Translations under genes and position numbers: made by a program
Assembly: GCA_017623595.1 (NCBI GenBank)
Contig: JAGAOU010000044.1
Location: forward strand, 68,914-132,913
Length of the DNA: 64,000 nucleotides
From: Clostridia bacterium
GTDB lineage: Bacteria > Bacillota > Clostridia > Oscillospirales > UBA644
Direction: 5' to 3'
The notes under the pieces: model-generated
The model's input: only the letters and a program-made list of their open reading frames with translations
Database searches by the model: none
Told to the model about the DNA's origin: nothing
Shown: piece by piece, positions 10,829 through 58,057 of the stretch
Layout: every line of letters begins with the position of its first letter
How positions within the stretch are numbered: the stretch's first letter is position 1

Positions 10829-10849
10829 GTGGGATTTCAAAACAAGGAT

Positions 10850-12355: not shown

Positions 12356-12398
12356 AAACCGTTTGGAAACAACATAATTGCAAAAGGAGGTGTTTGCC

Positions 12399-14886: not shown

Positions 14887-15015
14887 TTCCACGTAACTTT
14901 GATTTTATCGGTGTTTGCGGGTTACGCTCCCCAAAAGCATCGCTAAAATAAACACATGGAAACATTCACGGTTGTTTCCGAAACAAAATTTTATTTCAGA
15001 AAGGAAATGAAAGAA

Positions 15016-17412
15016 ATGGAAAAAGACGAACGCAAAGTTGTCTACGGCATTCGTGGAAAACTCGTCTCTGCCGTGGCTATGCTCCTGGTCGCTTGCATCA
15101 TGGTTGTGTCTTCCACCTATGCATGGTTCACTCTTTCTACGGCTCCCGAAGTAAAGGGTATTTCCACTGCCGTCGGCGCCAACGGTGCCCTTGAAATGCT
15201 TCTTACTTCTTTTGATTCCAGTACCGGTGATATTTTTTCTGGAGACGGTCTGCAGACGGGTGTCACAGATGTTCCTACTCGAAACAAGTATTGGGGAAAC
15301 CTGGTCGATTTGAGCAGTAATACTGAGTATGGATCTAATTTGATTACACTCTACCCCTCCATGTTGGATTTGACCTTGACTGGCGGTTCTGTACCTGTTA
15401 CCGGTCCTGTTTTGTCTACTCCTGAGTATGGGGCAGATGGTCGGCTCGACGCTGTTGAGCGCAACGCAGTCTATGGCAAGTATGACGGTACGGCATTCTA
15501 TCCTGTTAATGACAATGACTACGGCTTCCGTGTCCTTGGTGTTGCTTCCGGTATGACTGAGCGCGAATTGGCATACCGCAATGCGCTTTCTAACATTAAA
15601 GTTAATATGGGTCTTGCCAAGAACTCTGCAGCTGCTTCTATTGAGAATAACGGATCGACTCTTGCCGATATTGCCGTTATTAAGGCTATGCTTGATAGTC
15701 CTAAATTCACTCAAGCACAGATTGATTCTATCTCTGCTATGATTCGTGAACTGAAGGTTGCTCTTGATAGCGTTGAAGAAGCTTACATCCAGTCTATCCT
15801 TGCTCTCGCTGCAAGTGCGGCTGTGCAAGATGAGGCTGGCTATACTGCTATATCGAACTCCATTAATGGATTGACTCGCGTTAGCGGTTCTTCGACTGAT
15901 CTTGATGGAATTATTTCTAACTTGGAAACTGTTGGGGTGTCTTTGCCCGCTAATCTTTCTGCAGGTATTGATGCGTATAAGGCTTCTTTGGCCAATGTTG
16001 TTGCTGCTGAAGGCTTGATTCCGACATCCGGTACAAGTGGTGACACAAATTCTCCCTATCTTTGGGAAGATTTTGATGACGCTTTAAATAAGTTGGTTAA
16101 TATCAACACTATTGAGGTTAATGGTAGTTCTACTATTGACAAAGACAAGATTGCAGGAGACGTTTTTGCAGGTAGAGGTATTACTGTTACTATGCCTACT
16201 GGTTCCGGTGTGTATGCTGATATTGCCGACCAGTGCGGCGACTATTCTGCAGGTATTAAAATTAGTGGCAAAGAGTTGGGTATTAACGAAAGCGCTCCTG
16301 CTACTATGAACACTAAAACTGATATGACAACCGCAGCTAAGGGCGGCTATGTTTATTTGGATGCTGCACACAATGCTGCGTCCGCCGCTGGAACGCCCGA
16401 CACCTCTGGTACTGCAAAGCCTCTTACGGAATTCTATGGTTATGTTATTGACCTTTCTTTCAGAACAAATGCTGCGCAGTCGAAGCTGTTGTTACAGGCT
16501 GAAGGTGTAGATCGTATATATGAGGATAACAATAACGATAATACCATGGGCAGCGGAAGCACCATGACATTCAAAACTGTTGATCCGAGTTTTACCACTG
16601 ATAATATGAGAAACCTCATGGGCAACATTCGAATTGTTTTCTTTGATACTAAGACCGGTACGATTTATGCTCAAGCTCGACTGGAAACCTCTGAAGATGA
16701 AACTCAGACTACGGCAGATGGTATTGTTGCAGAAATGTATATTCCTTTGACTGTTGATGCCTATAAGTATACAATAACGGAAGGTCAGACTTCGACGGAT
16801 TATATTGTGTTCAGAACAGAGACAACAACTGGTGAGGGTGATTCGGCCGTTACGACCTATACCTACTACTCTGACTATGAGAAGACTAAACTTGTTACTC
16901 TTCCCGCCGGTGTTTCTGATCAGGATGTAGTTGCAACAACGACTGAAATCAAGAGCTATGAAATCGCAGATTTGAATCAGAATCAGGCTAAGTATGTATC
17001 TGCACTTGTTTATTTGGATGGTACAACGATTACCAACGCAGATGTTGCTGCCTCTGCTGCTGCCTCTATGACCGGTAAGGTTAATTTCCAGTTTGCAAGC
17101 TCTGCCACCTTGGTTCCTATGGAATATAGTGATCTCCATATTACTGATCAGGTTCCCACTATTACGAAGGATGTAACTATTGAGGCTGACGGTACTGACA
17201 AAACGATCGTTCTTTCCGGGCAGAATGCTACAACCTTTGTGTTTGACGGAACTGCTCCTACAGGATTGTCTATCTCCGGTACAAACTTGACGGTTACCAA
17301 GGATGCCGTAGCGCGTGATTATATTATTCTCGGTAAGGCCTCGGCGGATGCTGATGCAGAAACCTTGGTAAAGATCAAGCTTACCGTAGTGAATAACTAC
17401 GTTGCTCCTTAA
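15016..17412 (+). CDS. large SipW-type-signal, TasA-like family protein (~798 aa)
   Basis: ORF 14956..17412; ATG 15016 has the best RBS spacing (15007 is possible). N-terminus LLVACIMVVSSTYAWFTLSTAPEVKGISTAVGANGALEM. Core motifs YVIDLSFRTNAAQSKLLLQA and ALVYLDGTTITNADVAASAAASMTGKVNFQFASSATLVPM are nearly colinear with the 1704-aa protein. Confidence 0.7.
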   Translation: MEKDERKVVYGIRGKLVSAVAMLLVACIMVVSSTYAWFTLSTAPEVKGISTAVGANGALEMLLTSFDSSTGDIFSGDGLQTGVTDVPTRNKYWGNLVDLSSNTEYGSNLITLYPSMLDLTLTGGSVPVTGPVLSTPEYGADGRLDAVERNAVYGKYDGTAFYPVNDNDYGFRVLGVASGMTERELAYRNALSNIKVNMGLAKNSAAASIENNGSTLADIAVIKAMLDSPKFTQAQIDSISAMIRELKVALDSVEEAYIQSILALAASAAVQDEAGYTAISNSINGLTRVSGSSTDLDGIISNLETVGVSLPANLSAGIDAYKASLANVVAAEGLIPTSGTSGDTNSPYLWEDFDDALNKLVNINTIEVNGSSTIDKDKIAGDVFAGRGITVTMPTGSGVYADIADQCGDYSAGIKISGKELGINESAPATMNTKTDMTTAAKGGYVYLDAAHNAASAAGTPDTSGTAKPLTEFYGYVIDLSFRTNAAQSKLLLQAEGVDRIYEDNNNDNTMGSGSTMTFKTVDPSFTTDNMRNLMGNIRIVFFDTKTGTIYAQARLETSEDETQTTADGIVAEMYIPLTVDAYKYTITEGQTSTDYIVFRTETTTGEGDSAVTTYTYYSDYEKTKLVTLPAGVSDQDVVATTTEIKSYEIADLNQNQAKYVSALVYLDGTTITNADVAASAAASMTGKVNFQFASSATLVPMEYSDLHITDQVPTITKDVTIEADGTDKTIVLSGQNATTFVFDGTAPTGLSISGTNLTVTKDAVARDYIILGKASADADAETLVKIKLTVVNNYVAP

Positions 17413-17530: not shown

Positions 17531-18535
17531 GTGGAACATCAAGCAAATACCCCAACCAAACGCAGACCAAGCAGAAAAACGATGCTCTTCATCTATTTCT
17601 ACCTGATTCTGCTCCTCTTGGCTCTCTCCACGGTGGCCACCTATACATGGTTTTCTCTCTCAAGAACGCCGCAAGTCAGCAATCTGTCCATGTACGTGAC
17701 CTCCCGCTCCGGTTTGGAGCTTGCTCTCGCCCCCGACAGCGAGACCTGGGGAAGCCACCTCTCTTACCTTGATATGGTGCAGGATTCCATACCACTCCGT
17801 CCTGTCACCTGGTCGGAAAAAGATCAAAGATTCTATGCAGCGGTTTTTGGCATCGACGGCAGGCTTACAGGTCAGTGGGAGCCTCTGTCGGATGAGCGTA
17901 ATGCCAATCGCGACAACTACGAAGGTTATTATGTTGTGGGAACCTTTTATGCCCGCACGGGCCAAGATGTTACCGTCTCCCTGACCCACGCCATGGAGGT
18001 TGAAGAGGGCATCAACGGATCGGGCACCTATCTTATCGGTACCCCCAAATGGGACGCCGACCAACTCGCACATTCCAACGCCGGTCAGGGCGCCGAAAAC
18101 GCCGTCCGCATCGGCATCCGCATTACTCCTTTGGACGCAAACAATCAACCCATCTCCCAAGAAGAGACCTTTTTTATCTACGAGCCCAACTGTGACACTC
18201 ATCTCGACGGCTCGCAAGGATACAAAGAGACCCTCAGCATCGACGGAGATACCTCACTTATCCCCAAGGATCGCTTGATTCTTCAGTCTCACACCACGTG
18301 GACCGAATCCGATCCTGTGCAAAATGGTGTGCAAAACTTCACCTTCGGAGAGTTCTTGACCCCGGTCGAGCTCTTTTCTCTGGATTCCAATCAGAAGGTG
18401 ATGATCCGTGTCTATCTTTGGTTGGAGGGCCAGGACGTGGATTGCACAAACGCCATCAAGGAAGCTCAAATCCTTGCAAACCTCCAGTTCCGAGCAGATC
18501 CGGACAATCAATCCGGTATGACTCCATACGAGTAA
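17531..18535 (+). CDS. SipW-type-signal, TasA-like family protein (334 aa)
   Basis: GTG start 7 nt after GGAAGG. N-terminus LLLLALSTVATYTWFSLSRTPQVSNLSMYVTSRSGLELA. Motifs VRIGIRITP, FFIYEPNCDTHLDG and RVYLWLEGQDVDCTNAIKEAQILANLQFRA. Confidence 0.7.
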   Translation: MEHQANTPTKRRPSRKTMLFIYFYLILLLLALSTVATYTWFSLSRTPQVSNLSMYVTSRSGLELALAPDSETWGSHLSYLDMVQDSIPLRPVTWSEKDQRFYAAVFGIDGRLTGQWEPLSDERNANRDNYEGYYVVGTFYARTGQDVTVSLTHAMEVEEGINGSGTYLIGTPKWDADQLAHSNAGQGAENAVRIGIRITPLDANNQPISQEETFFIYEPNCDTHLDGSQGYKETLSIDGDTSLIPKDRLILQSHTTWTESDPVQNGVQNFTFGEFLTPVELFSLDSNQKVMIRVYLWLEGQDVDCTNAIKEAQILANLQFRADPDNQSGMTPYE

Positions 18536-18620: not shown

Positions 18621-19442
18621 ATGAACGATAATATCCCTACGAATAATGTAGAGACAACGGTTGTGCCGGAAGTTCCCGCTTCTGCACCCAATCCTTCCCC
18701 CAGAATGAAAAAGAGAAAGAAGAAGAACAACTCCAAGAAAACATTGAATATTGTCATCAATGTGATTCTTGTCGTGGCCATTGTAATTGCCGCAGTTTGT
18801 ACTTACATCTCTTTTGTTACCACCTCCGGGAACGGCGTTCCCAATGTGTTCGGTCTCCGACTTCTGTCGATTCAGACCGACTCCATGTATCCTAAATTTA
18901 AGTCCGGAGATCTGATTATTTCCGTTGGCATCGACGATCCTTCAGAGCTCCGTCCAAAAGATATTATTACCTATTGGACCGTCATCAACGGTGAACGTGT
19001 CCTGAATACCCACCGTATTGAGAACATCTACGATGGCGGCGGGTATCTGATCTTTGAGACCAAGGGTGATAACAACGCCAACGTCGACCCCCTGACCGTC
19101 CATGAATCGGAACTGGTGGGTGTGTACAAGTTCTGTATCCCCGGCGTCGGTAAAGCCCTTGATTACCTGCAGACAAGCACCGGCTTTTTGCTGGTGGTTC
19201 TGATCCCCGTTCTGCTCTTCTTCCTGTATCATCTCGTTCAGTTCTTCCGCGTTTTGTTTGAATATCAGAACGTTAAGAACCGTATTAAGTTTGAGCAGGA
19301 AAGAGGCAAGACGGAAGATCTTCTTGCCGAACAGGCTCAACGTGAGGCTGAGCGTGCCCAGATGGAGGCTGAGTTGCGGGAAAAACTCCGTGCCGAACTT
19401 CTGGAAAGCATGGCCAGAGAAAAAGAATCGAAGGACGAATAA
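18621..19442 (+). CDS. signal peptidase I, SipW-like (ER/archaeal type, S26B), paralogue 1
   Basis: AGGAGG RBS. TM helix, catalytic Ser box QTDSMYPKFKSGDLI, His box NTHRI, and ETKGDNNANVD. Second TM helix near the C-terminus, as in B. subtilis SipW, then a charged tail (...ELREKLRAELLESMAREKESKDE). Confidence 0.8.
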   Translation: MNDNIPTNNVETTVVPEVPASAPNPSPRMKKRKKKNNSKKTLNIVINVILVVAIVIAAVCTYISFVTTSGNGVPNVFGLRLLSIQTDSMYPKFKSGDLIISVGIDDPSELRPKDIITYWTVINGERVLNTHRIENIYDGGGYLIFETKGDNNANVDPLTVHESELVGVYKFCIPGVGKALDYLQTSTGFLLVVLIPVLLFFLYHLVQFFRVLFEYQNVKNRIKFEQERGKTEDLLAEQAQREAERAQMEAELREKLRAELLESMAREKESKDE

Positions 19443-19492: not shown

Positions 19493-21088
19493 ATGGATAA
19501 TTTTTTCAGATACTTTTTCCAGGATATCGGGAATGTTTTCCGCGCTTTCGTGGATGCACTTGTTGCGTTTTGGGACTTTATTTACCTGTTGTTTAACTTC
19601 CCCAAACGCATGGATATTATTGCTCAGTACAACGAATCCTTCTCCACAACGGAGTGGGTTTTGTTGCTGGTGGTCAATCTCATCCTCGTTGCGCTGATTA
19701 TTGTTCTGATTGTCTTTCTTGTAAAACTTTTCCGCAAGATATTCCGTTTCCGCATTTCGCCGAAAAAATACGATGATGTGGTGCGTCAGTTGCGTGCTCT
19801 TCAACGGGATTTGATCCGCGCAAACTACGAAAAGGATCGCCTTCTGGCCATGCGAGTGACTGAAATGGGCGGGAAAGATCCTCTTCCGCAGTTCGAGGGA
19901 ATGGAAGATCAAGAAGAAAATACGGAGCAAACAGAGCCGAAGGAAGATGTTCCCCTCGTATCCGCGAACCGCAATCGGTTCGATTCTCCCTGCGTGGATC
20001 CCGCCGACAGCCGTTTCTTCCGTCTGACCGGTGTGGACAACTTCTATAAAACCGAATATTATCCCCCCGTGTATGATGATAATGTCACCTTAAGTGAGTT
20101 CTGTGAGCGATTCCGCCTCTTTGCGGCATCCAGATTGCATCTGTATTATGATCTTGACATGATGCGGTTCTTTGTTGCGTCTATGGGTGCTGCCAGAATT
20201 ATCATTTTGCAAGGTATTTCCGGTACCGGTAAAACCAGTTTGCCCTATGCCTTCGGTAAGTTTGTTCAGAAGGACTCTACCGTGGTTTCTGTCCAGCCTT
20301 CCTGGCGTGAACGTACTGAGCTTTACGGTTATTTTAACGAATTTACCAAGCGCTATTCCGAAACCGAATTTTTGCGCGCCATTTACGAAGGAAACTATTA
20401 TCGCGATCCCCATGTGGTAATCCTGGACGAAATGAACATCGCCCGCGTGGAATACTACTTTGCGGAGATGCTCTCCATTCTTGAAATGCCGCTTCAGGAA
20501 GAATGGAAGGTCGATATTGTTACTTCTGTTTGGGATAACGACCCCTGCTTGATTGAAGGCGGTACCGTTCGTATTCCCAATAATATTTGGTTCGTCGGTA
20601 CCATCAATAACGACGACTCCACCTTTGCCGTCGCCGATAAGGTGTACGACCGTGCCATCCCCATCGACTTGGACAGCCGTGCGGAACCCTTTGAATGCGA
20701 GGATACCGATCCGATTTTTGTCTCTACAGATCGTCTTAGCTATCTGTTCGAAGAAGCAAAGAGTATGTATCCGGTATCGAATGAAATTCTTGAAAAGCTG
20801 GAGATCGTCAACGAATACGTTATTAAGAATTTCCGTCTGGCCTTCGGTAACCGTGTTATGAAGCAGATTAAGGACTTCGTTCCTTGCTTTGTTGCTTGCG
20901 GCGGAACCGAGCTTCAGGCTGTTGACTTTATTGTTGCGAAGAAAGTTCTCCGTAAACTGGAATCCTTGAGCCTTGGCTTTATGAAGGACGACCTGACGAA
21001 ATTCAGCAGTTTCTTGGATCGTACCTTTGGCAAGAACTCGATGATGTTCTGCAAGAATTATATTGAATTGTTGAAGAAGACCAACTGA
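19493..21088 (+). CDS. membrane-anchored McrB-like (AAA_5) AAA+ NTPase
   Basis: Two N-terminal hydrophobic segments (VFRAFVDALVAFWDFIYLLFNF; WVLLLVVNLILVALIIVLIVFLVKLF) and a short coiled coil. Walker A ILQGISGTGKTS. Walker B plus McrB-type helix VVILDEMNIARVEYYFAEMLSILE. IPNNIWFVGTINNDDSTFAVADKVYDRA matches the McrB 'N-x-x-i-i-G-T-M-N-t-a-D-r-S' region as I recall it. Confidence 0.7.
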   Translation: MDNFFRYFFQDIGNVFRAFVDALVAFWDFIYLLFNFPKRMDIIAQYNESFSTTEWVLLLVVNLILVALIIVLIVFLVKLFRKIFRFRISPKKYDDVVRQLRALQRDLIRANYEKDRLLAMRVTEMGGKDPLPQFEGMEDQEENTEQTEPKEDVPLVSANRNRFDSPCVDPADSRFFRLTGVDNFYKTEYYPPVYDDNVTLSEFCERFRLFAASRLHLYYDLDMMRFFVASMGAARIIILQGISGTGKTSLPYAFGKFVQKDSTVVSVQPSWRERTELYGYFNEFTKRYSETEFLRAIYEGNYYRDPHVVILDEMNIARVEYYFAEMLSILEMPLQEEWKVDIVTSVWDNDPCLIEGGTVRIPNNIWFVGTINNDDSTFAVADKVYDRAIPIDLDSRAEPFECEDTDPIFVSTDRLSYLFEEAKSMYPVSNEILEKLEIVNEYVIKNFRLAFGNRVMKQIKDFVPCFVACGGTELQAVDFIVAKKVLRKLESLSLGFMKDDLTKFSSFLDRTFGKNSMMFCKNYIELLKKTN

Positions 21089-21112
21089 TAAAACAGGAAA
21101 GGAGTGTACGCC

Positions 21113-23002
21113 GTGGCTGAAAGCAAAAAGAAGGCCCCTGCGGTTGAACAGAAAGAAAGCGATAATGTCGAGATTCTGTTTCAAAAGTATGTGAAAAGCG
21201 TAGTGCGCGCTCTCGGTAGTACACAGTTTTATCAGTATTTTATGGAATCTGTTGCAAGCGCGGAAAATGAAATTCAATTTTCCAACCGCCGCATGGAAAA
21301 AATTGTGGATACCGAATGGATCGATGCGGTTGAAAGTGCGTTGACCGGATTCCAAAACATTATCGAAAGTCCCCGTAATGTTATTCGCGAGGACGAATTG
21401 ATTGTTAATGTCGCCAATGCGAAAAAGACCGGCAGTGATGTGGTTCGTCACCTTTCTATGCATGCTTCTCTTGTTGAAGATTTCAACGAAGAAAGCGGCG
21501 ATGTTCGTCCCAGCAAGTTGATGCAGAAGTATCGCGAGGACTCGATCGGTCAGGTTTATGAGAACCGTGTTGTTTTTACAACACTGGAAATGGCTTATCA
21601 GTTTGTCAAGATCCGTCATGACGCACTTCTGAGTGCCATGAGTGAGGAGTTCGGCGCAAAGCTTAAGGTTAAGACCGATATGTCCAATCCTGTGGAATCG
21701 GTCCATATGGATATGTTTTTGCATATTCGTGACGTAGACGGTGCGCTGGATACGGACGATAAAAATCGGGAGGTTTTTGACCGTATTTCCCGTCTCTATC
21801 GGTTGCTTGCCAATGATATGAACAGCCATTTTGCCCGTCATATGTCTCGCTATCCTCGCGTGAAGGGTTCTGTTACAAAAACCAACGTGTTGAAGCGGAA
21901 TAAGAATTACCGTGTTATTTTGGAGCTTTTGGAGTATTTGCGGAGTTACGGTGATATTGGTTATACCATAAAAATCATTGAGCAAAACCCGCAGATTGAC
22001 GAAGTGTTCGAAAAGAATATTTTCCACAACGTATTGTTTCAGTATCTTCTGTTGAAAAACCATTTGGAACGGGATAAGGATCGTCGCCTCCCCTCTCCGA
22101 TGAAGGAGAAGAAGCGTGTTCTGAAGCCCAAATTTATCAAGGAAATTATCGAAGAGCTCACCGAAGATTATGATCTTCCCGACGTTGAGGTTCGTAAGGT
22201 TCTGATTGAAGAACTTACCAAGGAACAGCTGCTTCAGGAAGAAGCCGCGGAACGCAGACGTCTTGTGGAAGAGCAGGCACAGCGTAAGAAGGAAGAAGAA
22301 GCCCGTCGCAAGCAGGAAAAAGAAGCCGAGAAAGAGCGTCTCCGTCAGGAGCGTGAGGCTGAAAAGGAACGCCTGCGCCAAGAGCGTGAAGCCGAAGAAC
22401 AACGTTTGTTGATCGAACGCATGGAACGTGAGCAGGAAGACCGTCGCCGCAGTCGCTTGTTTAAGGCAGATCTTGACTTGTTTGCTAAGAATTTTGACGA
22501 GCGTTTGGAGCTTCGTGCACAGGCAAAAGCGATCAGAGAAACGGTTTCGCAGGATTTTGAAGATGCTGCATACATTTTGGAAGAGACCGAACGTCTGAAA
22601 AAAGAAGAAGCCGATCGAAAGAGACAGCGCAGACGGGAGGAGATGGAGCGTCGCCGTCAAGAAGAACGGGATGCTCAACTTCGGGCTTTGGCCGAAGAAG
22701 AAGCCAGACGTCAGGAAGAGATCCGTCAACAACAAGAGGCGGAAGCACTCTTGCGACAGCAATTGGCAGAACAGGAAGAGGCTGAGCGCAGAGAGCAGGA
22801 ATTCCGTGATCAGCAGGCCGTTGCCATATTTGTGAATGAGTTGGCTCTCTTTGGAAACGGTTTTCAAGCGCGATTGTTCTTGCGAGCGCAGGAGGAGCAG
22901 AGACTTCTGCAGCTTCGTGCCGCATTTGATGAAGAAAAGAGAAAGCGGCAGGATGCAAAAACCGCAGAGGAAAATCGCCGTTGGAGATTTGGTAAACGAT
23001 GA
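21113..23002 (+). CDS. partner of the AAA+ protein: ~330-aa N-domain + ~280-aa E/R/K/Q-rich coiled-coil or single-alpha-helix region; no nuclease motif seen
   Basis: ORF 21104..23002; GTG 21113 is 8 nt after AGGAAAGGAG. The N-domain contains ...DSIGQVYENRVVFTTLEMAYQFV... and sits in the position McrC/DUF2357 proteins occupy next to McrB. The C-terminus is extremely charged. The stop overlaps the next start (ATGA at 22999-23002). Confidence 0.6.
   Translation: MAESKKKAPAVEQKESDNVEILFQKYVKSVVRALGSTQFYQYFMESVASAENEIQFSNRRMEKIVDTEWIDAVESALTGFQNIIESPRNVIREDELIVNVANAKKTGSDVVRHLSMHASLVEDFNEESGDVRPSKLMQKYREDSIGQVYENRVVFTTLEMAYQFVKIRHDALLSAMSEEFGAKLKVKTDMSNPVESVHMDMFLHIRDVDGALDTDDKNREVFDRISRLYRLLANDMNSHFARHMSRYPRVKGSVTKTNVLKRNKNYRVILELLEYLRSYGDIGYTIKIIEQNPQIDEVFEKNIFHNVLFQYLLLKNHLERDKDRRLPSPMKEKKRVLKPKFIKEIIEELTEDYDLPDVEVRKVLIEELTKEQLLQEEAAERRRLVEEQAQRKKEEEARRKQEKEAEKERLRQEREAEKERLRQEREAEEQRLLIERMEREQEDRRRSRLFKADLDLFAKNFDERLELRAQAKAIRETVSQDFEDAAYILEETERLKKEEADRKRQRRREEMERRRQEERDAQLRALAEEEARRQEEIRQQQEAEALLRQQLAEQEEAERREQEFRDQQAVAIFVNELALFGNGFQARLFLRAQEEQRLLQLRAAFDEEKRKRQDAKTAEENRRWRFGKR
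22328..22393 (+). repeat. tandem 33-nt (11-aa) duplication EKERLRQEREA x2 inside the charged region
   Basis: gagaaagagcgtctccgtcaggagcgtgaggct / gaaaaggaacgcctgcgccaagagcgtgaagcc give an identical peptide with synonymous differences. Confidence 0.8.
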
Positions 23003-24324
23003 AAAATACAGTTGGCAAGCTGCTTGCAGCTTCTATGGCTCTGATTCTTTCGGTTGCGATGGTGGTTACAATCACTTACGCATGGACCACACTTTCCACG
23101 ACTCCCGTTGTGGAGGGGGTGCAGATTGCTATCAGCGGAAGCAGCACCATTCTGATTGCCCCCGATCTTTCTGAGGTTGTTGATGGAACTACTTATCACT
23201 ATCCGGGACATTTCAGTGATAATTTGAATTTTTCTCGTTATGAAAATTACTCGTATCTGTCCTCGCTTGATGCCCTTTCTCCCGTTTCGACCTCGAATGG
23301 CTTGCATTGGTTTCTTCCCGAGTATTATGATATTTCCGATGAAGCGGTTAAGAACGGTGAAGCTCGGGTCGGTGATGTGAAGCCTGTCCGTGATTTTGTT
23401 TTGGATACTGAGTTGGAGTTTGCAAATCTCAGCGGATCGGATGCTTCGACCGACGGACATTATCTCTATTTGGATTTTTGGGTTGTTTCTCCTTCCACGA
23501 ATTATACGCTTCGCATTTCCCGCGGAGATGAAAGTGGCGGCAGTTATTTGCTGGAGCTTCCTACCGTTTCTTCGAATGAGAGCGGATATACCTTGACGGA
23601 CAGTGATGGCTCTTTTGCGGCCGCTGCCCGCATCGGATTTTTGGCAAATACGGACTATGTTACAGATAACACCATGGTGTATTATCAAAAAAGTCCTGCC
23701 TATAATGACCAATTTCGTCGTTTGAGCGGTTTTTATCAGGAAAAGGGTTCTCTTCTCTATTCCGGAGATTATCGGTTCTTAATTTACGAGCCAAACGGGG
23801 ATCTGCATCCCGGGACGGAAAATACCGGATATGTTGCCACAACGCCGGTTGCAACCGATGGAAATCAAGTGTTCCTTGCCGATATCCGAGATCGTTTGAG
23901 TGTACAGCTTAATAATATTTGGAAAAAGAACGGCTCGGAATCTATTCTCCTGGAGCAGATTTTTCAAACTGCAATCTCCGGGAAGGATGTGGAGTCTCCC
24001 CAAGATGCTGCATCTCTCTTTTATGACGATTATTTGCAGGGGCAGTTTGCTCCTTATGTAACTACAGGGTCTTTTGTTTCGAATATATCCGCTTTGTACG
24101 GATGTATGGAAAATGATGGTTTCTCGGTGAGTGCTGAGGCCATGAATTCACTGAATTTATCAGGTGCTACAGAAGATACTTATATTGTAAAATTGGAAAA
24201 AAACGTACCGCAACGGATCCGTATGTTTGTTTGGATTGAGGGGCAGGATGTAGACTGCGATTCCTCTGCAAGCAACCGACGGTTTGCGTTGAGCATTGAA
24301 CTTGCGGGAAGCAATCAAGATTGA
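22999..24324 (+). CDS. SipW-type-signal, TasA-like family protein (441 aa)
   Basis: N-terminus LILSVAMVVTITYAWTTLSTTPVVEGVQIAISGSSTILIA. Motifs YLYLDFWVVSPSTNYTLRISRG, AAARIGFL, FLIYEPNGDLHPG and RMFVWIEGQDVDCDSSASNRRFALSIELAG. Confidence 0.7.
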   Translation: MKNTVGKLLAASMALILSVAMVVTITYAWTTLSTTPVVEGVQIAISGSSTILIAPDLSEVVDGTTYHYPGHFSDNLNFSRYENYSYLSSLDALSPVSTSNGLHWFLPEYYDISDEAVKNGEARVGDVKPVRDFVLDTELEFANLSGSDASTDGHYLYLDFWVVSPSTNYTLRISRGDESGGSYLLELPTVSSNESGYTLTDSDGSFAAAARIGFLANTDYVTDNTMVYYQKSPAYNDQFRRLSGFYQEKGSLLYSGDYRFLIYEPNGDLHPGTENTGYVATTPVATDGNQVFLADIRDRLSVQLNNIWKKNGSESILLEQIFQTAISGKDVESPQDAASLFYDDYLQGQFAPYVTTGSFVSNISALYGCMENDGFSVSAEAMNSLNLSGATEDTYIVKLEKNVPQRIRMFVWIEGQDVDCDSSASNRRFALSIELAGSNQD

Positions 24325-24326
24325 TT

Positions 24327-25055
24327 ATGAAGCATGCAGACAACAGAACGAAGATTCGGAACAGAATAATATCGGCATCGGTCACAGTCCTGTTGGTTCT
24401 ATCACTGTTTTGCTGTTTGTATGTGATTGTTCAGGTCTTGACCTGTGGATATGTTTCTTTTGGCGGTCATTGCTTTTTTCGGGTTGTGACCGGCAGTATG
24501 GAGCCTTCCCTCTCTGTGGGAGAATTGATTCTGACCGATGATGTGGACATCAAAGAGATCTGCGTCGGGGATGTTGTCAGTTTCCGTTCTCAATCGATCG
24601 ATACCATGGGGAATATTATTACCCACCGGGTGGTGGATGTTTCGCACAATGCAATGGGTGAAATCCAACTTTTGACGAAGGGGGATGCGAATCTGTCTGT
24701 GGATGGAATGTATGTAACCGCCTCGAATTTAATCGGAAAAGTTGTTTGGTCTTCCGGAGACAGTTTCCTTGCCTCCGTGATGTCGTTTTTGTCCGGTCGG
24801 TATGGTTTTCTCGCATGTATTGTATTTCCCTGTCTGCTAATTCTTGGCTTTGTGTTGAAAGACAATGTTAAGTCTATGAGACGCGACATGAAGAAGCTTG
24901 TAGATACAATGGAAAAATCCGGGGAAGATGTGGCACTGGTGTCTTCGGATGTTATTGCAGAAGAAGATTATGATGCTATGCGTGAACGCCTTCGTGCGGA
25001 ATTGATGGAGGAGCTATTGAATCGTGATGTTGAAGCACAGTCGAGAGAAGAATAA
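24327..25055 (+). CDS. signal peptidase I, SipW-like, paralogue 2
   Basis: ATG 24327 (TTG 24321 possible). Ser box VVTGSMEPSLSVGELI, His box ITHRVV, and LTKGDANLSVD. C-terminal TM helix FLACIVFPCLLILGFVL, then a charged tail ...MRERLRAELMEELLNRDVEAQSREE. Confidence 0.8.
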   Translation: MKHADNRTKIRNRIISASVTVLLVLSLFCCLYVIVQVLTCGYVSFGGHCFFRVVTGSMEPSLSVGELILTDDVDIKEICVGDVVSFRSQSIDTMGNIITHRVVDVSHNAMGEIQLLTKGDANLSVDGMYVTASNLIGKVVWSSGDSFLASVMSFLSGRYGFLACIVFPCLLILGFVLKDNVKSMRRDMKKLVDTMEKSGEDVALVSSDVIAEEDYDAMRERLRAELMEELLNRDVEAQSREE

Positions 25056-26892
25056 TTCTGCCGGCGGTCTGCTTGGGCTTCTGAAGGTATTGCAAAAAAA
25101 GGTATTGCTCCGCATTGTTTTGGTAGGATTGATCTTAGTTTTGACTTTGATCCTTGTTTTTGCTTTTACGATTGCGTGGCAAACAAATATTGTTCAGACC
25201 GGCGGCTTGATGTTTTCCGCAGAAACTTGGAATTTCAGCGGAGAAATCTCTGTTTCCGGGCAACCCGATGCGATTGCGCCCGGTGATAGCGGAACAATCG
25301 GGATTCAACTGAAGAATGAAAGTTCCAATTTGGTCGCAGCAAGCGTTACGGTGTCGAAAGATGGCCTGAACGAATTTGTGCGTCCCCGTATGTATTTTTA
25401 TGTTGATACTACTGTGGCACGAAATGAGGAAACCCTTTCCCGTGTTTATGTCAGCAGTAAGAGTAGTTATACTTATGTTGTTTTTCCTTATAGCGATCTT
25501 CAACTGAACGAAGATTCCGATTACTATCCTGTTCTGAAGTGGGAATGGGTTTATGACAACCTTGGTTACTATGTTCTCGGTCAGCCCGGCACAGATTCGT
25601 TTCAGATTGACGAATATATTCGACCGATCGAATATGAGTACGACCCCATGAGCACTTCGTTTGACGCAGACGGTAACTTGATTCAGTTGGAAGGAAAGAG
25701 TGTTTCCGAGTTCTTGCAAGCGTTTTCGCAAACCGACGGTTATGTCGGCACGATAGATACCACTGCTGCACAACAGGGGTATTATCCCGTCTCGGTTGAC
25801 GCTAATAATTACGGTGTTTGGGCTTATTTGTGCACCTATGATGAGATCCAATCCGGTGCGACTAAGGATTCCGAATTGGGGACGGGTAGTGCGACGTTGG
25901 GTTCTGCGTCTGTTGTTGTGACCGGCTGGAATAGCCAAGAAGCCGGTTCTCCTGTATACAATGAGGATACGTTGCTCCAAGCTTTGAGTTCTCCCGGGTT
26001 CAATCATGTCACACTGTCTCAGGATGTAACATTAACAGAGTCTGTTCTTTTGAAGTCGGGCTCTCAGACAATGCTTGATTTGAACGGCCATACTATCTCT
26101 TCCTCTGCACAAAGTGTTATTTCTGCAGAAGAAGGGGCAACCGTGATGATTTGCGACGGTGATATCGTCGGTCAGAACGGTGCTGAAAACGGCATTTATT
26201 CGGTTGGTTCTTCTGTTACTTTGAACAATGTAAACATCCGCGATGTTGTGGAAGGTATTACGGTTTTTGATCATAAGAACTCGCTTGGTTTGGATTCTTC
26301 GATTCACTTGGTCGATTGTAATGTCGTCGGTAAATTGGACGGTCTTTGGATCTATGGCAACGGCAGCGATTCCGCAAAGAACACCTCGGTTGTTATTGAA
26401 CACAGTACAATTGAAGGCTCCGGCTATATCGGTGTTCTTTGCAACGGTACGTATTTCGGTACGGATATTCGTATTTCGGAAGGAAGCGTTATCAAAGGTC
26501 ATTATGCTGCAATTTATTTCCCGCAGAGGGACAGCTTCTTGACGGTCAGCGATTCTACCCTTGAGGGTGGTACTGCATTGGCCGTAAAGGGCGGCGCTGT
26601 CAGGGTAATTGATTCTGTTATTATAGGAATAGGAGAGGCAAATCCTCCTCCCGCTGATCCCGCAAATCTTTCCAAGAGCGGTTTCTGGGATACCGGCGAT
26701 GGTGTTTATCTGGAAGCAAATTATACCGAATGGACTACAACTATCACTATTGAAGGCGATAATACAAATATCAGCAGTGCCAATGGTGAGGCCGTTCGCA
26801 TGTATCCTACGGGCGGTACCCATGCGAGTATCGTCATTTACGGTGGGACTTATAGTTCGGATGTTTCCGAATATTGGGCAGCCGATTCTTGA
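25024..26892 (+). CDS. SipW-type-signal, TasA-like N-domain fused to a parallel beta-helix (PbH1-like) C-terminal half (622 aa)
   Basis: GTG 25024 or ATG 25027 after GGAGGAG; overlaps the peptidase gene end. N-terminus LTLILVFAFTIAWQTNIVQTGGLMFSAETWNFSGEIS, then APGDSGTIGIQLKNESS (camelysin-like PGD...N motif). C-terminal half has repetitive V/I-x-G/N turns (MLDLNGHTISSS, VTLNNVNIRDV, IHLVDCNVVG, VVIEHSTIEGSG, IRISEGSVIKG, LTVSDSTLEGG). Confidence 0.65.
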   Translation: MMLKHSREKNNSAGGLLGLLKVLQKKVLLRIVLVGLILVLTLILVFAFTIAWQTNIVQTGGLMFSAETWNFSGEISVSGQPDAIAPGDSGTIGIQLKNESSNLVAASVTVSKDGLNEFVRPRMYFYVDTTVARNEETLSRVYVSSKSSYTYVVFPYSDLQLNEDSDYYPVLKWEWVYDNLGYYVLGQPGTDSFQIDEYIRPIEYEYDPMSTSFDADGNLIQLEGKSVSEFLQAFSQTDGYVGTIDTTAAQQGYYPVSVDANNYGVWAYLCTYDEIQSGATKDSELGTGSATLGSASVVVTGWNSQEAGSPVYNEDTLLQALSSPGFNHVTLSQDVTLTESVLLKSGSQTMLDLNGHTISSSAQSVISAEEGATVMICDGDIVGQNGAENGIYSVGSSVTLNNVNIRDVVEGITVFDHKNSLGLDSSIHLVDCNVVGKLDGLWIYGNGSDSAKNTSVVIEHSTIEGSGYIGVLCNGTYFGTDIRISEGSVIKGHYAAIYFPQRDSFLTVSDSTLEGGTALAVKGGAVRVIDSVIIGIGEANPPPADPANLSKSGFWDTGDGVYLEANYTEWTTTITIEGDNTNISSANGEAVRMYPTGGTHASIVIYGGTYSSDVSEYWAADS

Positions 26893-26963: not shown

Positions 26964-27533
26964 ATGAACCGGAAAAAGAAAATATGTCTTCTTTCGTTGT
27001 GCATGATCTTTCTCTTTCTGACGGTTGTTTCGGTTTCTGTGGGTGATACATTTGCCCGCTATACAACGCAGTTTTCGGGCATCGTTTCCTATTCTGCAGG
27101 ATCCATCCCCTCATTTAAAGTAAACGATGAAAGTGTGGTTTCTTCCCATTCGTTGAAACCCGACGCGGATGCCTGGACTTCCTTGGGAGGCGAAAAGATT
27201 TATTCTTTTGATGTTTCTGCTACAGACTCCGCACGTAATACTCAGCTTCGGGTTCGCGTTTTTGTCGAGGAGGATGAATCTGCCACGATGCCAACCGTTG
27301 CTTTGACAATGGATGACACCCGCTATACTTCCCAATTCGACTACCTTGGTCAAAATACCCCCTTTTACCTGTTGCATAAAACCGAGGGATGGTATTACTG
27401 TTTTACCCTTGAAAATGAAGAAATTCTGTGTTTTTTGAATGGCAACGAAAGTAAAACCCTTACCGTTTCCGTCCACAACACCGAAATTGATTTGTCTCGC
27501 ATCTGGATTTGTATTGATCGAGTTTCTGCTTGA
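26964..27533 (+). CDS. small SipW-type-signal protein (~189 aa)
   Basis: ATG 26964 is 8 nt after GGAG. N-terminus KKKICLLSLCMIFLFLTVVSVSVGDTFARYTTQFSGIVSYSAGS (T-F/Y-A-x-F/Y motif). No other recognisable domain. Confidence 0.55.
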   Translation: MNRKKKICLLSLCMIFLFLTVVSVSVGDTFARYTTQFSGIVSYSAGSIPSFKVNDESVVSSHSLKPDADAWTSLGGEKIYSFDVSATDSARNTQLRVRVFVEEDESATMPTVALTMDDTRYTSQFDYLGQNTPFYLLHKTEGWYYCFTLENEEILCFLNGNESKTLTVSVHNTEIDLSRIWICIDRVSA

Positions 27534-27558
27534 TCCCATTGCTCACAGGAGAATGAAT

Positions 27559-30500
27559 ATGAGAGAATCGCAAAGAAGAATTAACGAGTACAAACGAGCC
27601 CTTCCCCGATTAAAGGAGAAGGTAATCGCTGTTGCTTTGTTGCTTGCCGTATCCGCATCTATGATGGTTACGGTTACTTTTGCATGGGTTGCTTTGTCTA
27701 CAAACCCTGAAGTGAGTGGTGTTAATACCAGCATTGCCTCCAACGGTAACCTGGAGATCGCCCTTGCTACGGGCACTCTGACCGATGCCTCCGCTCCCGG
27801 CGCATCTCAGATCGGCGACAGTAACCTCGATACCCTCCTGCGTAACGTCACCTGGGGCAACCTGATCAATTTGGGCGATGCCCGCTACGGCCTCGATAAT
27901 ATTGTTCTCCGTCCTGCTCTTCTCTATGAAAGTGAGTTAATCACCTCTCCTCTTTATGGTCCGGTGTATGATGCTTCTGGACGGGTGGTTGATTTGAATA
28001 CTAACTTTGGTTATTCTAAGTGGAAGGAGTCTGCAAGTCGTTTTGAAGATACGGATGAACTGGGAATTCGTGCCATTACCTCTATGGTATACGGTGAAGA
28101 TAGTGATGCAAGCATCTACGGAGAAAGACTGAATCGTATTAAATCTGACATTCGTAGAGCTCAGGTTAACTACCAGAATATGGCTTATAACCAAGAATAC
28201 ATGGATGCATTGGCATCTATGATGACGGGTTATATGGTTCAAAATGTTTTAAAGGTAAACTCTTCGGTTGGGGGTATGATTAGCGATGCGACAATTCTTA
28301 AAAACGATTTGAAACAATTTTCATCTATGTATAGAACATTGATGGATAGTTATGTTGAATTTGCAGATGTATTAGCCTCACTTCTCAACCTTCAGGCAGA
28401 GTTGAATGGTAAAAGCATTTCAATTACCGGCGCTCAAATAATGGAACTGCCGTATGATACAGATACAAAAAGTGCTTATAATGCGCTTTTGGAAATGGGG
28501 TTTGAGACCTGTTCTGCTGACGATAAAACGATCGGGTTTGTGGAGGAAGTCGACCTGTTTTTGTCGGATTATAATATTTTGGTGAATGATGTTGTTAGAA
28601 TTGACAATTTGATTTCCAGTATTAGCGGCACTTCTGTTTCTTGGCCTAAATCGCCTGTTGTTGAAGGAACGGAAAAGAAATTAATCGATGATATTATCGA
28701 TAATCTTGTCAATGTAAAGGAATGTACGATTACCGGTGGTGAGTATAAAAATTTAAAGATTAAGAGTGTTGGTGCGACTGCAGCAATGAGCTTGAAGAAT
28801 GCCGGAACTTGTGAAACAAAAATAACAAATGGTGTATTGTACAATTTCGATAGTATCACCGGTGCAAGAATTAAAAATCCCGATGGAAATCCTTTGAAAT
28901 TGACTGTTCAGGTAATGGGGACTCAGACCATTACTTCCAATGTTTCCACAAGCGCAGAGGGTGACTATTTTGCTAATGAAGTGACTTTGGTTAAGGGTAT
29001 TATTGACGATAAGTTTAGTGAGCCTAAGTTAATCGCCAACGATACCTACGGCTTTGCTGTGGATTTTTGGGTTCGCACCAATGCCGCAAATTCTTATCTT
29101 ACCCTTCAGGGTAATGTTCTTACCGATACCGAAATGGTTGATGTGAAAGGTAAAGACCTCGATGGTAACGAGGTTCAGCTTTATACCATTACTGTGAAGG
29201 TACAGACCGAAGAATCGGAAAGCACCTCCTCCGACTCTTCCTCAAACACTGAGGGCGGTGGGCTTCTTGAGGACTTGAATACTGTCTCCTATGATGTATA
29301 TTACTATCCTCAGAAGGATGCTGACGGAAAAGATGTAACGGATGATCAGGGCAAAGTTGTCAACGATCTTCGCTATGCCTCCAACCATCAGATCGTGACT
29401 GCGGAGAGCCTTGGTCTTGCGGAAGGGGATCCTATCCCTGAACCCAGTAAAAAGGTTGAGGAAGTGGAATACGTCATTGGCTTTGAGGGCGACAACCGTA
29501 TATGGGAAGGGGATCAGCACTCCCTGCTTTCCGTCAATAGCACTACTCAGGGTAGTGGTAGTTGTTATGTCTTTTATGCCGAGACTCCCGTTGATCAGGA
29601 ACGCAGTTTGGAGCTTCTGAAATCTATGAAGGTTGCCTTTGTTTCGGCGGATGGTACTCTTCTTGCTACTGCCTATATGGATTCCGATCGTCATTTTTCA
29701 GATAGTGGTAAGGTGATCGTTCCCATGGTTCTGGATAGCGAGAGCACCAGTATTGGTACCGACGAAGATGGTAATATTCGTTATGCAATTACTGCCCTTG
29801 AGCAGAATGTTCCTACCCGTATTACTGCTATTGTATATTTGGATGGCTCCGATTTGACCAATGATGATGTTCTTGCTTCTGCTGATATCGAAGGGCGCAT
29901 GAACATTCAGTTCGGTTCTTCTGCGGTTCTTTATCCTCTCGATAATGAAACTCTTTACAATGCCGAACTGTACGCGGAAGTGGATTCGATTTCTCCCGGA
30001 AGCTTCGACTATGATACTTTGGCCGAGGGCGATTCTATGACTTCCCACGTAAAGGTTCGTATTACGGGAACACAGCCAAAAGTTGTTATAGCAAACTTCA
30101 TTCGCCGCATCAATGCCACCCAGGGCTCTCCCGAAGACACCTTTATTCTTACGGATGCCGATGGTGACGGTGTTTGGGAAGGGGATTATACCTTCCTTTC
30201 TCCTGGTACGTATATCCTTCGCAGTGTCACCATGGACGGCGTGGAGCGCGACCTTCAGGTTCCCTCCGGCGTGGAGGGGAAACAATATCCCACAGTTGTA
30301 GTCAAAGGCTTTTCTATTTCTTCGGTTAATTACAGCATGTCCCGTTTTGTTATGACCGACGCAGGCTCTTATAGCGGAACGGTTTCCTTGAAGTTTGCTA
30401 CCGATGATCCTGAAAAGATGCCAACCTCCGTCATCGGGAAATTTACCCGTGGTGACGGTGTCGCCGTCAACGTCAATTTTGTTTATAACCCGACTTCTGG

Positions 30501-32608: not shown

Positions 32609-33346
32609 ATGCAAGAGTATATTCAACAAATTCTGATAGACATTCGACAGGCAAATTTAGAGAATGTCATATATTATGGGACAACAATAATAGGAATTAT
32701 TGTAATGTTGTTTTATAGTTTATATTACGCAAAAAAGGTTAATATTAGTCGAACAAAAGCTGTTGTTAGCATACTTCTAGGGTCTACGATTGTCTTTTTC
32801 TTACTTCACGGCTCTTTGTTTGCAGTTAGGTTTATTGCAGAACACCAAATATTGAATATACATTCAGTTCAAAATAGCTTGGGGCGTGTCTTTGTTCTCG
32901 TTCCAATCGTTTCATTCCTTTTGAGTAAAATATTAAAAATACCACCAAATAAATTAAATGATCTGTTTGCTTTTAGTCAACCTCTAATTTGGGGAACAAC
33001 CTCGATTGGTTGTTTGTTTGCAGGGTGTTGTAATGGATATAGCTGTGAATGGGGCATATATAATGCAAGGTTAGACAGTTTTGTATTTCCTACGCAGTTC
33101 TTTAATGCATTGATATTGATTGGTATTTTCCTTGTTCTGATTAAAATATTTCAAAAGAATCACTATAATACAAAGGGGATTTTGTATCCATTGATGTTGA
33201 TTATGGTAGGTTTAACCCGCTTTTTTACCGAATTTTTGATGGATAGTGAAAAAATCCTTTTTGGTGTTTCTGCGGTTGGCGTCCATTGTCTAGTAATGCT
33301 TTTAGTTGGTTTTGTGTGGATTCAGAAATGTAGGTTAAAGAATTAA
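32609..33346 (+). CDS. polytopic membrane protein, Lgt-like (prolipoprotein diacylglyceryl transferase family paralogue)
   Basis: Six to seven hydrophobic helices. SIGCLFAGCCNGYSCEWGIYN resembles the GR-x-GCF-x-GCC-x-G variant of the Lgt signature seen in some Firmicutes paralogues (from memory). Markedly AT-rich gene. Confidence 0.4.
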   Translation: MQEYIQQILIDIRQANLENVIYYGTTIIGIIVMLFYSLYYAKKVNISRTKAVVSILLGSTIVFFLLHGSLFAVRFIAEHQILNIHSVQNSLGRVFVLVPIVSFLLSKILKIPPNKLNDLFAFSQPLIWGTTSIGCLFAGCCNGYSCEWGIYNARLDSFVFPTQFFNALILIGIFLVLIKIFQKNHYNTKGILYPLMLIMVGLTRFFTEFLMDSEKILFGVSAVGVHCLVMLLVGFVWIQKCRLKN

Positions 33347-58043: not shown

Positions 58044-58057
58044 AAATTGCTCCTTTA

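Follow-up and report, generated by a model that had tools for sequence, protein, structure and literature searches.

A 64,000-nucleotide (nt) stretch of a Clostridia bacterium genome (GCA_017623595.1, contig JAGAOU010000044.1, positions 68,914-132,913 of the forward strand; GTDB lineage Bacteria; Bacillota; Clostridia; Oscillospirales; UBA644), here called the window, contains a gene for a membrane-anchored, McrB-like nucleoside triphosphatase (NTPase; 19493..21088, 531 amino acids, aa) that is followed in the McrC position by a partner gene (21113..23002) and is embedded among genes for two SipW-like signal peptidases and several secreted proteins, the whole cluster being read from the + strand. 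McrBC is a textbook restriction enzyme. Our analysis indicates that, in this cluster, an McrBC-derived NTPase module without the DNA-binding and nuclease parts has probably become a fixed, vertically inherited component of a SipW/fibre operon of gut Clostridia. We consider it very likely that the pair belongs to the CoCoPALM class and is functionally tied to the SipW/fibre operon; a specific GTP-gated mechanism of peptidase coupling, extended by analogy from characterised McrBC complexes, is plausible without being probable.

A conserved triad of SipW, NTPase and partner genes

Gene order was compared in 51 loci of distinct GTDB species (gut metagenome-assembled genomes, MAGs, of Oscillospiraceae, Acutalibacteraceae and further Eubacteriales) and in 80 metagenome loci with NTPase identities of 42-70%. 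The 51 species loci share one order with all genes on the same strand: g04 (an HD_5 gene), g05, g06, g07, SipW-1, NTPase, partner, g11, SipW-2, g13 and, further downstream, a giant open reading frame (ORF). The 80 metagenome loci keep the core g05 - SipW - NTPase - partner - SipW. A SipW-like gene lies upstream of the NTPase gene, within 1 kb and on the same strand, in 46 of 46 species-representative loci and in 61 of 66 metagenome loci, and in three of the five metagenome loci that lack it SipW stands right after the partner. The partner N-domain is encoded directly downstream of the NTPase in 46/46 species-representative and 65/70 metagenome loci. Median gaps are 33.5 nt (species representatives) and 56 nt (metagenome loci) between SipW and NTPase, and 26.5 and 36 nt, respectively, between NTPase and partner. 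The sequence bears out the tight packing reported in the original prediction for the window itself: the NTPase gene starts 50 nt downstream of the end of the first SipW-like gene at 19442, 24 nt separate NTPase and partner (a gap that implies a partner start at GTG 21113), and the end of the partner ORF at 23002 overlaps the ATG of the next gene (22999) as ATGA.

Median identity across species is highest for the NTPase (70%), followed by SipW-1 (68%) and the partner (62%), and then falls through g04 (56%), g05 (54%), g07 (52%), g11 (45%) and SipW-2 (43%) to g06 and g13 (both 37%). SipW, NTPase and partner thus form an almost invariant, tightly spaced triad made up of the three best-conserved genes of the cluster, with the NTPase at the top, and the pattern is that of conserved machinery beside diverging surface-exposed products. 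The triad also occurs in a Bacilli/'Mollicutes' MAG lineage and in a lineage of Ruminococcus. The Ruminococcus homolog cluster, with 5146 member sequences, counts among its carriers a cultured strain, Ruminococcus sp. TF12-2.

No close NTPase relatives were found on plasmids, on phages or on IMG/VR contigs, where the only relatives were distant (<=40% identity) and soluble, sharing the GTPase domain. Two of the plasmid relatives were examined; both are soluble AAA ATPases adjoining genes annotated as 'DUF2357 domain-containing protein', and one also lies among transposases and a methyltransferase. In the window, the flanks consist of metabolic genes, and no integrase, tRNA or Rfam element was found. 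Promoter and terminator scans gave nothing above chance, with no terminator-like site in the intergenic gaps of the core module. An inserted defence island is rejected by the synteny, and a mobile cassette by the want of close plasmid or phage relatives. The view that the pair is an exapted module and not an inserted island, as had been predicted, is therefore sustained by synteny across more than 100 loci together with the position of close relatives off the mobile elements searched.

A membrane-anchored GTPase of the NxD branch

The NTPase ORF carries the McrB/AAA_5 motif set that had been listed for it, GISGTGKTS, VVILDEMNIARVEYYFAEMLSILE and IWFVGTINNDDSTFAVADKVYDRA, its match to Pfam AAA_5 (E=2.4e-4) remaining under the gathering score. 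Walker A (GISGTGKTS) lies at 20213-20239, Walker B (LDEMN) at 20423-20437 and the NTPase signature (N-N-D-D) at 20606-20617, and YDR387 also lies in the GTPase domain, which spans aa ~170-531 (20000..21085) and is of the AAA+ McrB type by motifs and alignment. The NCBIfam McrB model matched weakly (E=3.5e-4). A profile search of the Protein Data Bank (PDB) with the NTPase family found Escherichia coli McrB as the sole protein matched (E=4.4e-4, aa 237-400, from Walker A to the signature), the entries being 6HZ4, 6UT6 and 7VSR only, and the PADLOC candidate-defence model PDC-M26A matched strongly (E=6.6e-41, 138 bits). The McrB assignment rests on this profile match, the motifs and the PADLOC match together.

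The NTPase has more than 8000 full-length relatives. When 1.84 billion cluster representatives were searched exhaustively, 8269 proved to be relatives, 749 of them at E<=1e-30. Among the best 150 representatives the signature motif was readable in 135, and 130 of these have N-x-D-[D/E] (DD in 99, DE in 31), while another three have N-x-D followed by Q, G or A. The window signature, N372-N-D374-D375, is by itself also readable as NxxD, and HMMER aligned it without gaps to NTAD; the NxD call for the window copy accordingly comes from the family pattern. In an alignment reaching down to 30% identity, K247, D312, N315, R318, E320, N372, D374, S376, T377 and R387 are invariant and the position after D374 varies among D, E and Q. 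Judged by these residues, the protein is an NxD-branch McrB-type NTPase with an intact catalytic set. The NxD variant defines a major non-canonical branch of McrB proteins (Bell et al. 2024, PMC11090510).

The 170 residues ahead of the GTPase domain consist of an amphipathic helix, a transmembrane (TM) segment, a coil and an acidic linker, and domain library searches found no match to a DNA-binding domain in them. The original prediction had described two strongly hydrophobic segments at the N-terminus. One of them holds up well: aa 55-79 (19655..19729) form a strong TM helix with a Kyte-Doolittle (KD) score of 3.5, present in all nearest 50%-cluster representatives and followed by a cluster of +5 charge (RKIFRFRISPKK). 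The other is weaker than described, since aa 15-36 have marginal hydropathy (KD ~1.6) and two Asp residues; this segment may be interfacial or re-entrant. It belongs to an aromatic-rich amphipathic/hydrophobic helix at aa 1-36 (19493..19600), a marginal TM candidate by hydropathy, conservation and AlphaFold2 (AF2) modelling, in which M1, D2, F4, Y7, F8, Q10, D11, L33, N35 and F36 are invariant among close homologs. AF2 predicted helices at 2-34 (low confidence) and 90-125. The latter (19760..19867), the 'FtsB-like' part, is a short coiled-coil or leucine-zipper-like helix with a heptad-like pattern and conserved L103 and E113, and aa 126-170 are an acidic disordered linker. Weak, sub-threshold matches to DivIC (PF04977) occurred in 3 of 12 orthologous NTPase N-termini (best E=0.016), and one matched FtsL_2. 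With a shallow alignment, the AF2 model of the NTPase had a predicted local distance difference test (pLDDT) score of 50, with the AAA+ core below 50, and was unusable for a fold search; only its N-terminal helices are used here, with caution. The TM analysis and the PDB profile agree with the earlier claim that a membrane anchor replaces the DNA-binding N-domain of McrB.

The N-terminal architecture shifts with distance from the window copy. The nearest relatives are built like the window copy, with a conserved aromatic helix of ~35 aa ahead of a single TM, after which come a basic cluster, a short coil and an acidic linker; further relatives have forms with 4-6 TMs, and beyond these lie soluble CoCoNuT-type forms of 700-870 aa. 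Some relatives carry a signal peptide, an ectodomain of ~280 aa, a TM and the motif RRRKKK directly before the GTPase domain. These relatives fix the orientation and, together with the positive-inside charge after the TM of the window copy, place the GTPase domain in the cytoplasm; the domain is thus predicted to face the cytoplasm and so is the coil, a topology opposite to that of FtsB.

Three relatives (P0246, P0247 and P0252) combine the NxD GTPase domain with a signal peptide, a PT-rich ectodomain of ~280 aa and a TM, and others (P0273-P0388) combine it with polytopic N-terminal domains of 4-6 TMs, so that membrane-coupled McrB-like GTPases are far more diverse than the single FtsB-like form of the literature. 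Automated defence finders would probably flag the NTPase on the strength of its 138-bit match to PDC-M26A, against what its context indicates; the match arises because the soluble CoCoNuT-type relatives share the GTPase domain, and in genomes of gut Clostridia it is likely to produce false 'defence system' calls. Finally, a 925-aa minus-strand ORF at 20090-22867, antisense to NTPase and partner, is almost certainly spurious, the antisense frame being free of stops because the sense strand is GA-rich and codes for E, R and K.

A DUF2357-family partner with a helical tail

The partner ORF begins mechanically at GTG 21104, which overlaps the Shine-Dalgarno sequence AGGAG (21100-21104). A second GTG at 21113, from which the product of 629 aa begins MAESKKK, is the likely true start because it lies 8 nt from AGGAG and homologs begin with 'MA'. 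The protein comprises an N-domain (ORF aa 1-352, 21104..22159) and a tail (ORF aa 363-631, 22190..22996).

Among close homologs, 10 of 21 matched PF09823 (DUF2357); in an alignment of diverse orthologous N-domains, which are 22-63% identical to the window copy, 20 of the 21 sequences did so (best E=6.4e-13), and the family also appears in precomputed annotations. The window N-domain is 56-63% identical to its seven closest counterparts in that alignment. In the homologs, DUF2357 maps to roughly aa 38-208. By this route through its orthologs, the partner is a member of the DUF2357 (McrC N-domain) family, in keeping with its position. An alignment by hhalign of the N-domain profile with E. coli McrC was not significant and neither supports nor refutes the assignment, E. 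coli McrC being too distant and assigned by Pfam to another family than DUF2357. Searches of the PDB with partner profiles gave no match. The AF2 model (pLDDT 65, predicted template modelling score 0.34), in which the long helix predominates, was too weak, and a Foldseek search of the PDB with it gave no meaningful match. The absence of a nuclease, also claimed beforehand, agrees with scans of the window copy (E<=0.1) and of 8 full-length orthologs (E<=0.01), in which no nuclease family was detected at the sensitivity of HMMER and a low-confidence model.

Past the DUF2357 region AF2 predicted mostly helices and then the tail, modelled as a continuous helix over aa 363-631 with low to moderate confidence. 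The E/R/K/Q-rich helical end that had been noted in the protein is evident from its composition, the ERKQ fraction being 0.5-0.78 over aa 351-632. The tail contains two ER/K-rich blocks (ERKQ 0.7-0.78, LIVMF 0.12), each followed by a short amphipathic motif (LFKADLDLFAKNFDERLELRAQ and IFVNELALFGNGFQARLFLRAQ), and since a classical heptad coiled coil would need more than the ~12% hydrophobic residues present in them, the blocks may be single alpha-helix spacers. Ortholog tails have a median length of 300 aa and an ERKQ fraction of 0.54. In the Bacilli/'Mollicutes' clade, the partner (L139:6839-7900) is 353 aa long and has no ER/K tail, with SipW and the TM-GTPase still adjacent, and the tail is therefore an add-on outside the minimal module.

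Two tailed signal peptidases, and partner-SipW fusions in other loci

Both peptidases are of the archaeal/ER-type signal peptidase I family (TIGR02228, cutoff 51.85 bits). SipW-1 (18621..19442; 89.5 bits) has a basic N-terminal extension, the boxes SM(Y)P, THR and GDNN, and a cytoplasmic C-terminal helical tail; SipW-2 (24321..25055; 84.7 bits) has the boxes GSMEP, THR and GDAN and a cytoplasmic C-tail ending in RERLRAELMEEL. Their matches to the NCBIfam SipW model (E=2.3e-30 and E=9.3e-20, respectively) fall below the equivalog cutoff of 190 bits, so both are SipW-like and not orthologs of Bacillus subtilis SipW. The latter has 190 aa and no such cytoplasmic C-terminal tail. The SipW-1 tail (aa 214-273, 19262-19442, ending in MEAELREKLRAELL) is at least 90% conserved at many positions among 49 orthologs, and the SipW-2 tail occupies aa ~181-244 (24861-25055). 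Both tails are charged and helical and have a common '(R/K)LRAEL' motif, to which RLELRAQ and RLFLRAQ (RLxLRAQ) in the partner tail, at ORF aa ~466-472 and ~589-595, are similar.

The partner and a SipW are fused in three loci (L069:1948-5121, L105:9610-12579 and L112:9594-12548), each protein being ~1000 aa long. The order is DUF2357 N-domain, ER/K helix, TM and a complete SipW-like S26 peptidase with GSMEP intact. The three proteins form one diverged clade and are only 50-70% identical to one another, which makes the fusion an evolutionarily maintained arrangement and not an assembly error. The N-terminus of SipW is cytoplasmic, so the partner fused to it lies on the cytoplasmic side as well, its tail ending at the first TM of the peptidase. 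In distant loci the SipW-2 ortholog abuts the partner or is fused to it; where a downstream SipW was seen, in 35 distant loci, 31 have its gene directly adjoining that of the partner.

Relation to described systems

The class to which we assign the pair was named in 2024. CoCoPALM was described as an NxD GTPase fused to an FtsB-homologous domain of TM and coiled coil, and was listed among 'CoCoNuT-like systems' in a few sentences, with its analysis deferred (Bell et al. 2024, PMC11090510). The window pair is very probably a CoCoPALM system: it has the NxD McrB-like GTPase, here the 'McrB' component, with an N-terminal TM and coil, an adjacent DUF2357 McrC homolog, signal-peptidase-family genes nearby, and coiled-coil or helical extensions on both proteins. 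No architectural difference from CoCoPALM was found, and the architecture of its FtsB-like domain is matched, with the FtsB homology sub-threshold and the predicted topology reversed in our case. A search of the available literature found no follow-up study of CoCoPALM; the mechanism is unpublished, and the class has never been studied experimentally. Literature searches on PDC-M26 found nothing, and those on McrB with SipW found only a mention in an E. coli strain genotype. Several features found here are absent from the main text of Bell et al., namely the partner-SipW fusions, the conserved SipW tails, the predicted placing of the coil on the cytoplasmic side, the presence of two peptidases and the HD-GYP/EAL gene heading the cluster.

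The pair resembles McrB and McrC of E. coli K-12 in its AAA+ McrB-clade core and in having the partner gene after the NTPase gene. It differs in several respects: the NTPase N-terminus is membrane-anchored where that of McrB is a DNA-binding domain; the signature is NxD and not NxxD; the partner has a DUF2357 N-domain and no detected PD-(D/E)xK nuclease; and the genes keep their place in a chromosomal fibre operon across more than 100 loci, whereas canonical McrBC is patchy, often mobile, and found in restriction or defence islands. With CoCoNuT and the soluble NxD cassettes (PADLOC PDC-M26; p96k of Deinococcus sp. AJ005; pN451-2.2 of Bacillus pseudomycoides) the pair shares a GTPase domain 35-45% identical over aa ~170-530, the N-x-D-[D/E] signature, a DUF2357 partner and long helical extensions. 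The soluble NxD proteins, however, are 650-870 aa long with long N-terminal coils and no TM, none lies beside SipW, and their genes are found among nucleases, methyltransferases and transposases, often on mobile DNA. Nor does the pair show the CoCoNuT features of a soluble coiled-coil GTPase and, where McrC lacks its nuclease, an associated HEPN or other nuclease: the window GTPase is TM-anchored, and no nuclease was detected.

Among SipW fibre systems, we compared the cluster with tapA-sipW-tasA of B. subtilis, sipW-bsaABC of Clostridium perfringens and the archaeal bundling pili. As in these, an archaeal/ER-type signal peptidase is encoded with several secreted paralogs, and in the secreted proteins of the window the TM signal leads into an aromatic T-[YFW]-A-[AW]-[FT] motif resembling the end of the TasA signal. 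The known systems have one SipW and no NTPase, whereas the window has two tailed SipWs and the McrBC-derived pair; in addition, its subunits have no detectable sequence match to TasA or camelysin, and its putative substrates include giant proteins of 800-2000 aa.

A possible mechanism and its alternatives

McrBC of E. coli and Thermococcus forms a hexameric ring into which the N-domain of McrC is inserted, with stimulation of GTP hydrolysis. On this model, six NTPase subunits would form a membrane-tethered ring, and the partner N-domain would plug the ring and stimulate its GTP hydrolysis. The long helix of the partner would tie the ring to the signal peptidases, as might the conserved cytoplasmic tails of SipW-1 and SipW-2, and nucleotide-dependent movements could then organise or gate SipW cleavage of the signal-anchors on g06, g07, g11, g13 and g15. 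In fibres of the TasA/Bsa type, cleavage exposes an N-terminal donor strand that is used in polymerisation (PMC11580942). Because it is the exposed end that polymerises, control of cleavage would amount to control of when and where fibres are built. We put forward only tentatively the resulting idea of a GTP-powered cytoplasmic ring, mechanically coupled to the signal peptidases, that drives or gates the ordered processing and polymerisation of fibre subunits and giant adhesins.

Several points weigh against this proposal. No dedicated NTPase takes part in the assembly of the SipW/TasA and SipW/Bsa fibres that have been characterised (PMC11580942), and a requirement for one here would be unprecedented. 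The hexamer, the insertion of the partner and the stimulation of GTPase activity are all extrapolated from the E. coli and Thermococcus complexes, and structural support for an McrC-like plug was not obtained, the AF2 models being poor (pLDDT 65 for the partner and 50 for the NTPase) and the Foldseek search empty. The window partner itself had no Pfam match at E<=0.1, so its assignment runs through the orthologs. Given the tailless Bacilli-type partner, the partner tail cannot be essential to the core mechanism, and the likeness between the motifs of partner and SipW tails is short and may be compositional. Lastly, the description of the neighbouring genes as TasA-like in the original prediction was not confirmed by sequence: Pfam, NCBIfam and PDB sequence searches left membership in the TasA/camelysin family (Peptidase_M73) unconfirmed, and the sole support for the label is the TasA-like aromatic motif after the signal TM together with paralogy among the neighbours.

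That same prediction had offered three roles as inferences, namely extraction or unfolding of giant substrates, gating of the peptidases and tethering of the fibre base, and the first of these is weighed below. Another alternative is a static scaffold or positioning device, in which the TM, coil and partner helix would localise the SipWs and the fibre base (at the septum or pole) or set their spacing, with NTP binding serving only as an assembly switch. The TM with its short coil and weak DivIC/FtsL matches, the description of this domain as FtsB-homologous (Bell et al. 2024, PMC11090510), the resemblance of the ER/K tail, at ~12% hydrophobic residues, to a rigid single-helix spacer, and the tethering evident in the SipW fusions would all suit such a device. 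We nevertheless think it rather unlikely, because the full conservation, down to 30% identity, of both Walker motifs, the sensor Asn and the Arg argues for retained hydrolysis, because the predicted topology, with a cytoplasmic coil, is the reverse of that of FtsB, and because the Bacilli-type clade does without the long tail. Extraction or unfolding would require a ring that threads or extracts giant substrates or cleaved signal-anchors in the manner of FtsH or Cdc48, and a membrane-anchored AAA+ ring beside very large secreted proteins (g01, g15) and signal-anchored substrates is what one would look for in that case. This is distinctly improbable: in the solved McrBC structures (6HZ4, 6UT6, 7VSR) the pore is occupied by McrC, whose DUF2357 counterpart is kept here; the McrB clade is not known to thread polypeptides; and the substrates are exported while the NTPase domain is cytoplasmic. 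The fusions, which join the module to a peptidase and not to substrates, favour peptidase coupling over substrate unfolding.

Alternatively, the module could still serve in conflict or defence by keeping watch on the secretion site or on the fibre or pilus, which phages probably use as a receptor, so that infection would trigger a response through the peptidases or the membrane, for example fibre shedding or abortive infection. The nearest soluble relatives of the GTPase domain do fall in candidate defence models (PADLOC PDC-M26A), and Bell et al. place the clade among 'CoCoNuT-like systems' (PMC11090510). The original prediction had counted occurrence as a stand-alone mobile cassette, together with a nuclease in the partner, as evidence against itself: the window clade was not seen in this form, but its distant soluble GTPase relatives were, as AAA+/DUF2357 plasmid cassettes beside transposases and a methyltransferase. 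Against a role in defence, the cluster, the pair included, yielded neither a nuclease nor a recognisable toxic effector, the mobile elements searched hold no close relatives, and the locus is syntenic and vertically conserved across many genera with the NTPase as its most conserved gene, whereas defence islands are typically patchy and fast-evolving; we regard such a role as unlikely. An ordinary McrBC-type restriction cassette inserted by chance into a surface-protein operon would explain the McrB-type motifs and the gene in the McrC position, but it can hardly be entertained in view of the undetected DNA-binding N-domain and nuclease, the NxD in place of NxxD, and the identical position in more than 100 loci of many genera with no mobile-element marks in the window; the synteny data effectively refute it. 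For the window clade, in sum, the partner shows no detectable nuclease, the N-terminus of the NTPase is predicted to span the membrane and no stand-alone mobile cassette was seen, all in line with the original prediction of an exapted module.

Other genes of the cluster and the window

At the head of the conserved cluster, g04 (12378..13865) encodes an HD-GYP-type protein (Pfam HD_5, E=8.9e-14). It was found in 34 loci; its orthologs carry HD_5 and EAL in L003:2133-3605, and EAL alone at a Ruminococcus locus (L138:7776-8522). It is a probable cyclic-di-GMP-linked regulator, and an HD_5/EAL gene in this position suggests cyclic-di-GMP-linked control of the fibre operon. No cyclic-di-GMP riboswitch was found, the Rfam scan of the window being empty. 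HD_5 in g04 is the only hydrolase-type domain of this sort detected, and no HEPN or other nuclease domain was found in any cluster gene.

The next gene, g05 (13879..14886), has a basic cytoplasmic N-terminus, a predicted TM at aa 88-112 and an external domain ending in WLEGDDPHCTNE. Its C-terminal region is common with the g07 family (hhalign E=2.3e-5), and it is kept beside SipW and the GTPase even in loci at 43-50% ATPase identity. With its long basic cytoplasmic N-terminus, the protein may be an uncleaved anchor and is a candidate for the membrane-anchored fibre base. Two putative fibre subunits resemble it, g07 (17531..18535; 334 aa, N-terminal TM and TYTWFSLS, C-terminal WLEGQDVDCTN) and g11 (22999..24324; 441 aa, TM and TYAWTTLS, C-terminal WIEGQDVDC). 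All three share a C-terminal W-[LI]-E-G-x-D-x-x-C-[TD] with an invariant Cys and a conserved beta-rich region before it. Neither g07 nor the g07-family profile had a sequence match in Pfam, NCBIfam or the PDB, and the region common to g05, g07 and g11 may represent an undescribed fibre-subunit fold.

The 818-aa secreted or fibre protein g06 (14956..17412; N-terminal TM, then TYAWFTLS), a putative SipW substrate, is syntenic in 37 loci and poorly conserved; g11 is syntenic in 39 loci, and the secreted protein g13 (25024..26892; 622 aa, TM and TIAWQT) in 36. The C-terminal half of g13 is beta-helix-like, and one ortholog matched Beta_helix weakly. The giant secreted protein g15 (27439..32553; 1704 aa, TM and TFAWVALS) is a putative SipW-processed adhesin or fibre component, and a giant ORF stands at its position in related loci.

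Further surface proteins flank the cluster. One at 3035-9169 has 2044 aa and a weakly matched dockerin-like C-terminus; two proteins with FIVAR repeats, both carrying a signal peptide and a TM at the C-terminus, and a leucine-rich repeat protein of the BspA type are encoded at 9187-10758, 10829-12355 and 33409-35184, and an Lgt-like gene lies at 32609-33346. On the minus strand at 55857-60286, two tandem paralogs of a glycoside hydrolase family 36 (GH36) alpha-galactosidase (melibiase), of 760 and 742 aa, have slightly overlapping ORFs; the GH36 pair is unrelated to the NTPase/SipW cluster.

Implications

To a specialist who knows the description of CoCoPALM (Bell et al. 2024, PMC11090510), the basic finding will be unsurprising. 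A version of McrBC without DNA binding or nuclease, membrane-bound and the most conserved gene of a fibre operon, would make a clear case of a defence motor recruited for surface biogenesis. If the proposal is true, no other apparatus for assembling SipW-class fibres would have been known to depend on an NTPase, an McrBC module would for the first time have been shown to serve outside defence, and the relatives with polytopic or ectodomain-bearing TM-McrB forms would point to a wider, unexplored family of membrane-coupled McrB motors. The fusion of partner and SipW offers a concrete, testable physical model of how such a motor is joined to its peptidase. Gut Clostridia that carry the cluster are abundant, and their displayed fibres and giant adhesins may therefore matter for colonisation and for attachment to substrates.

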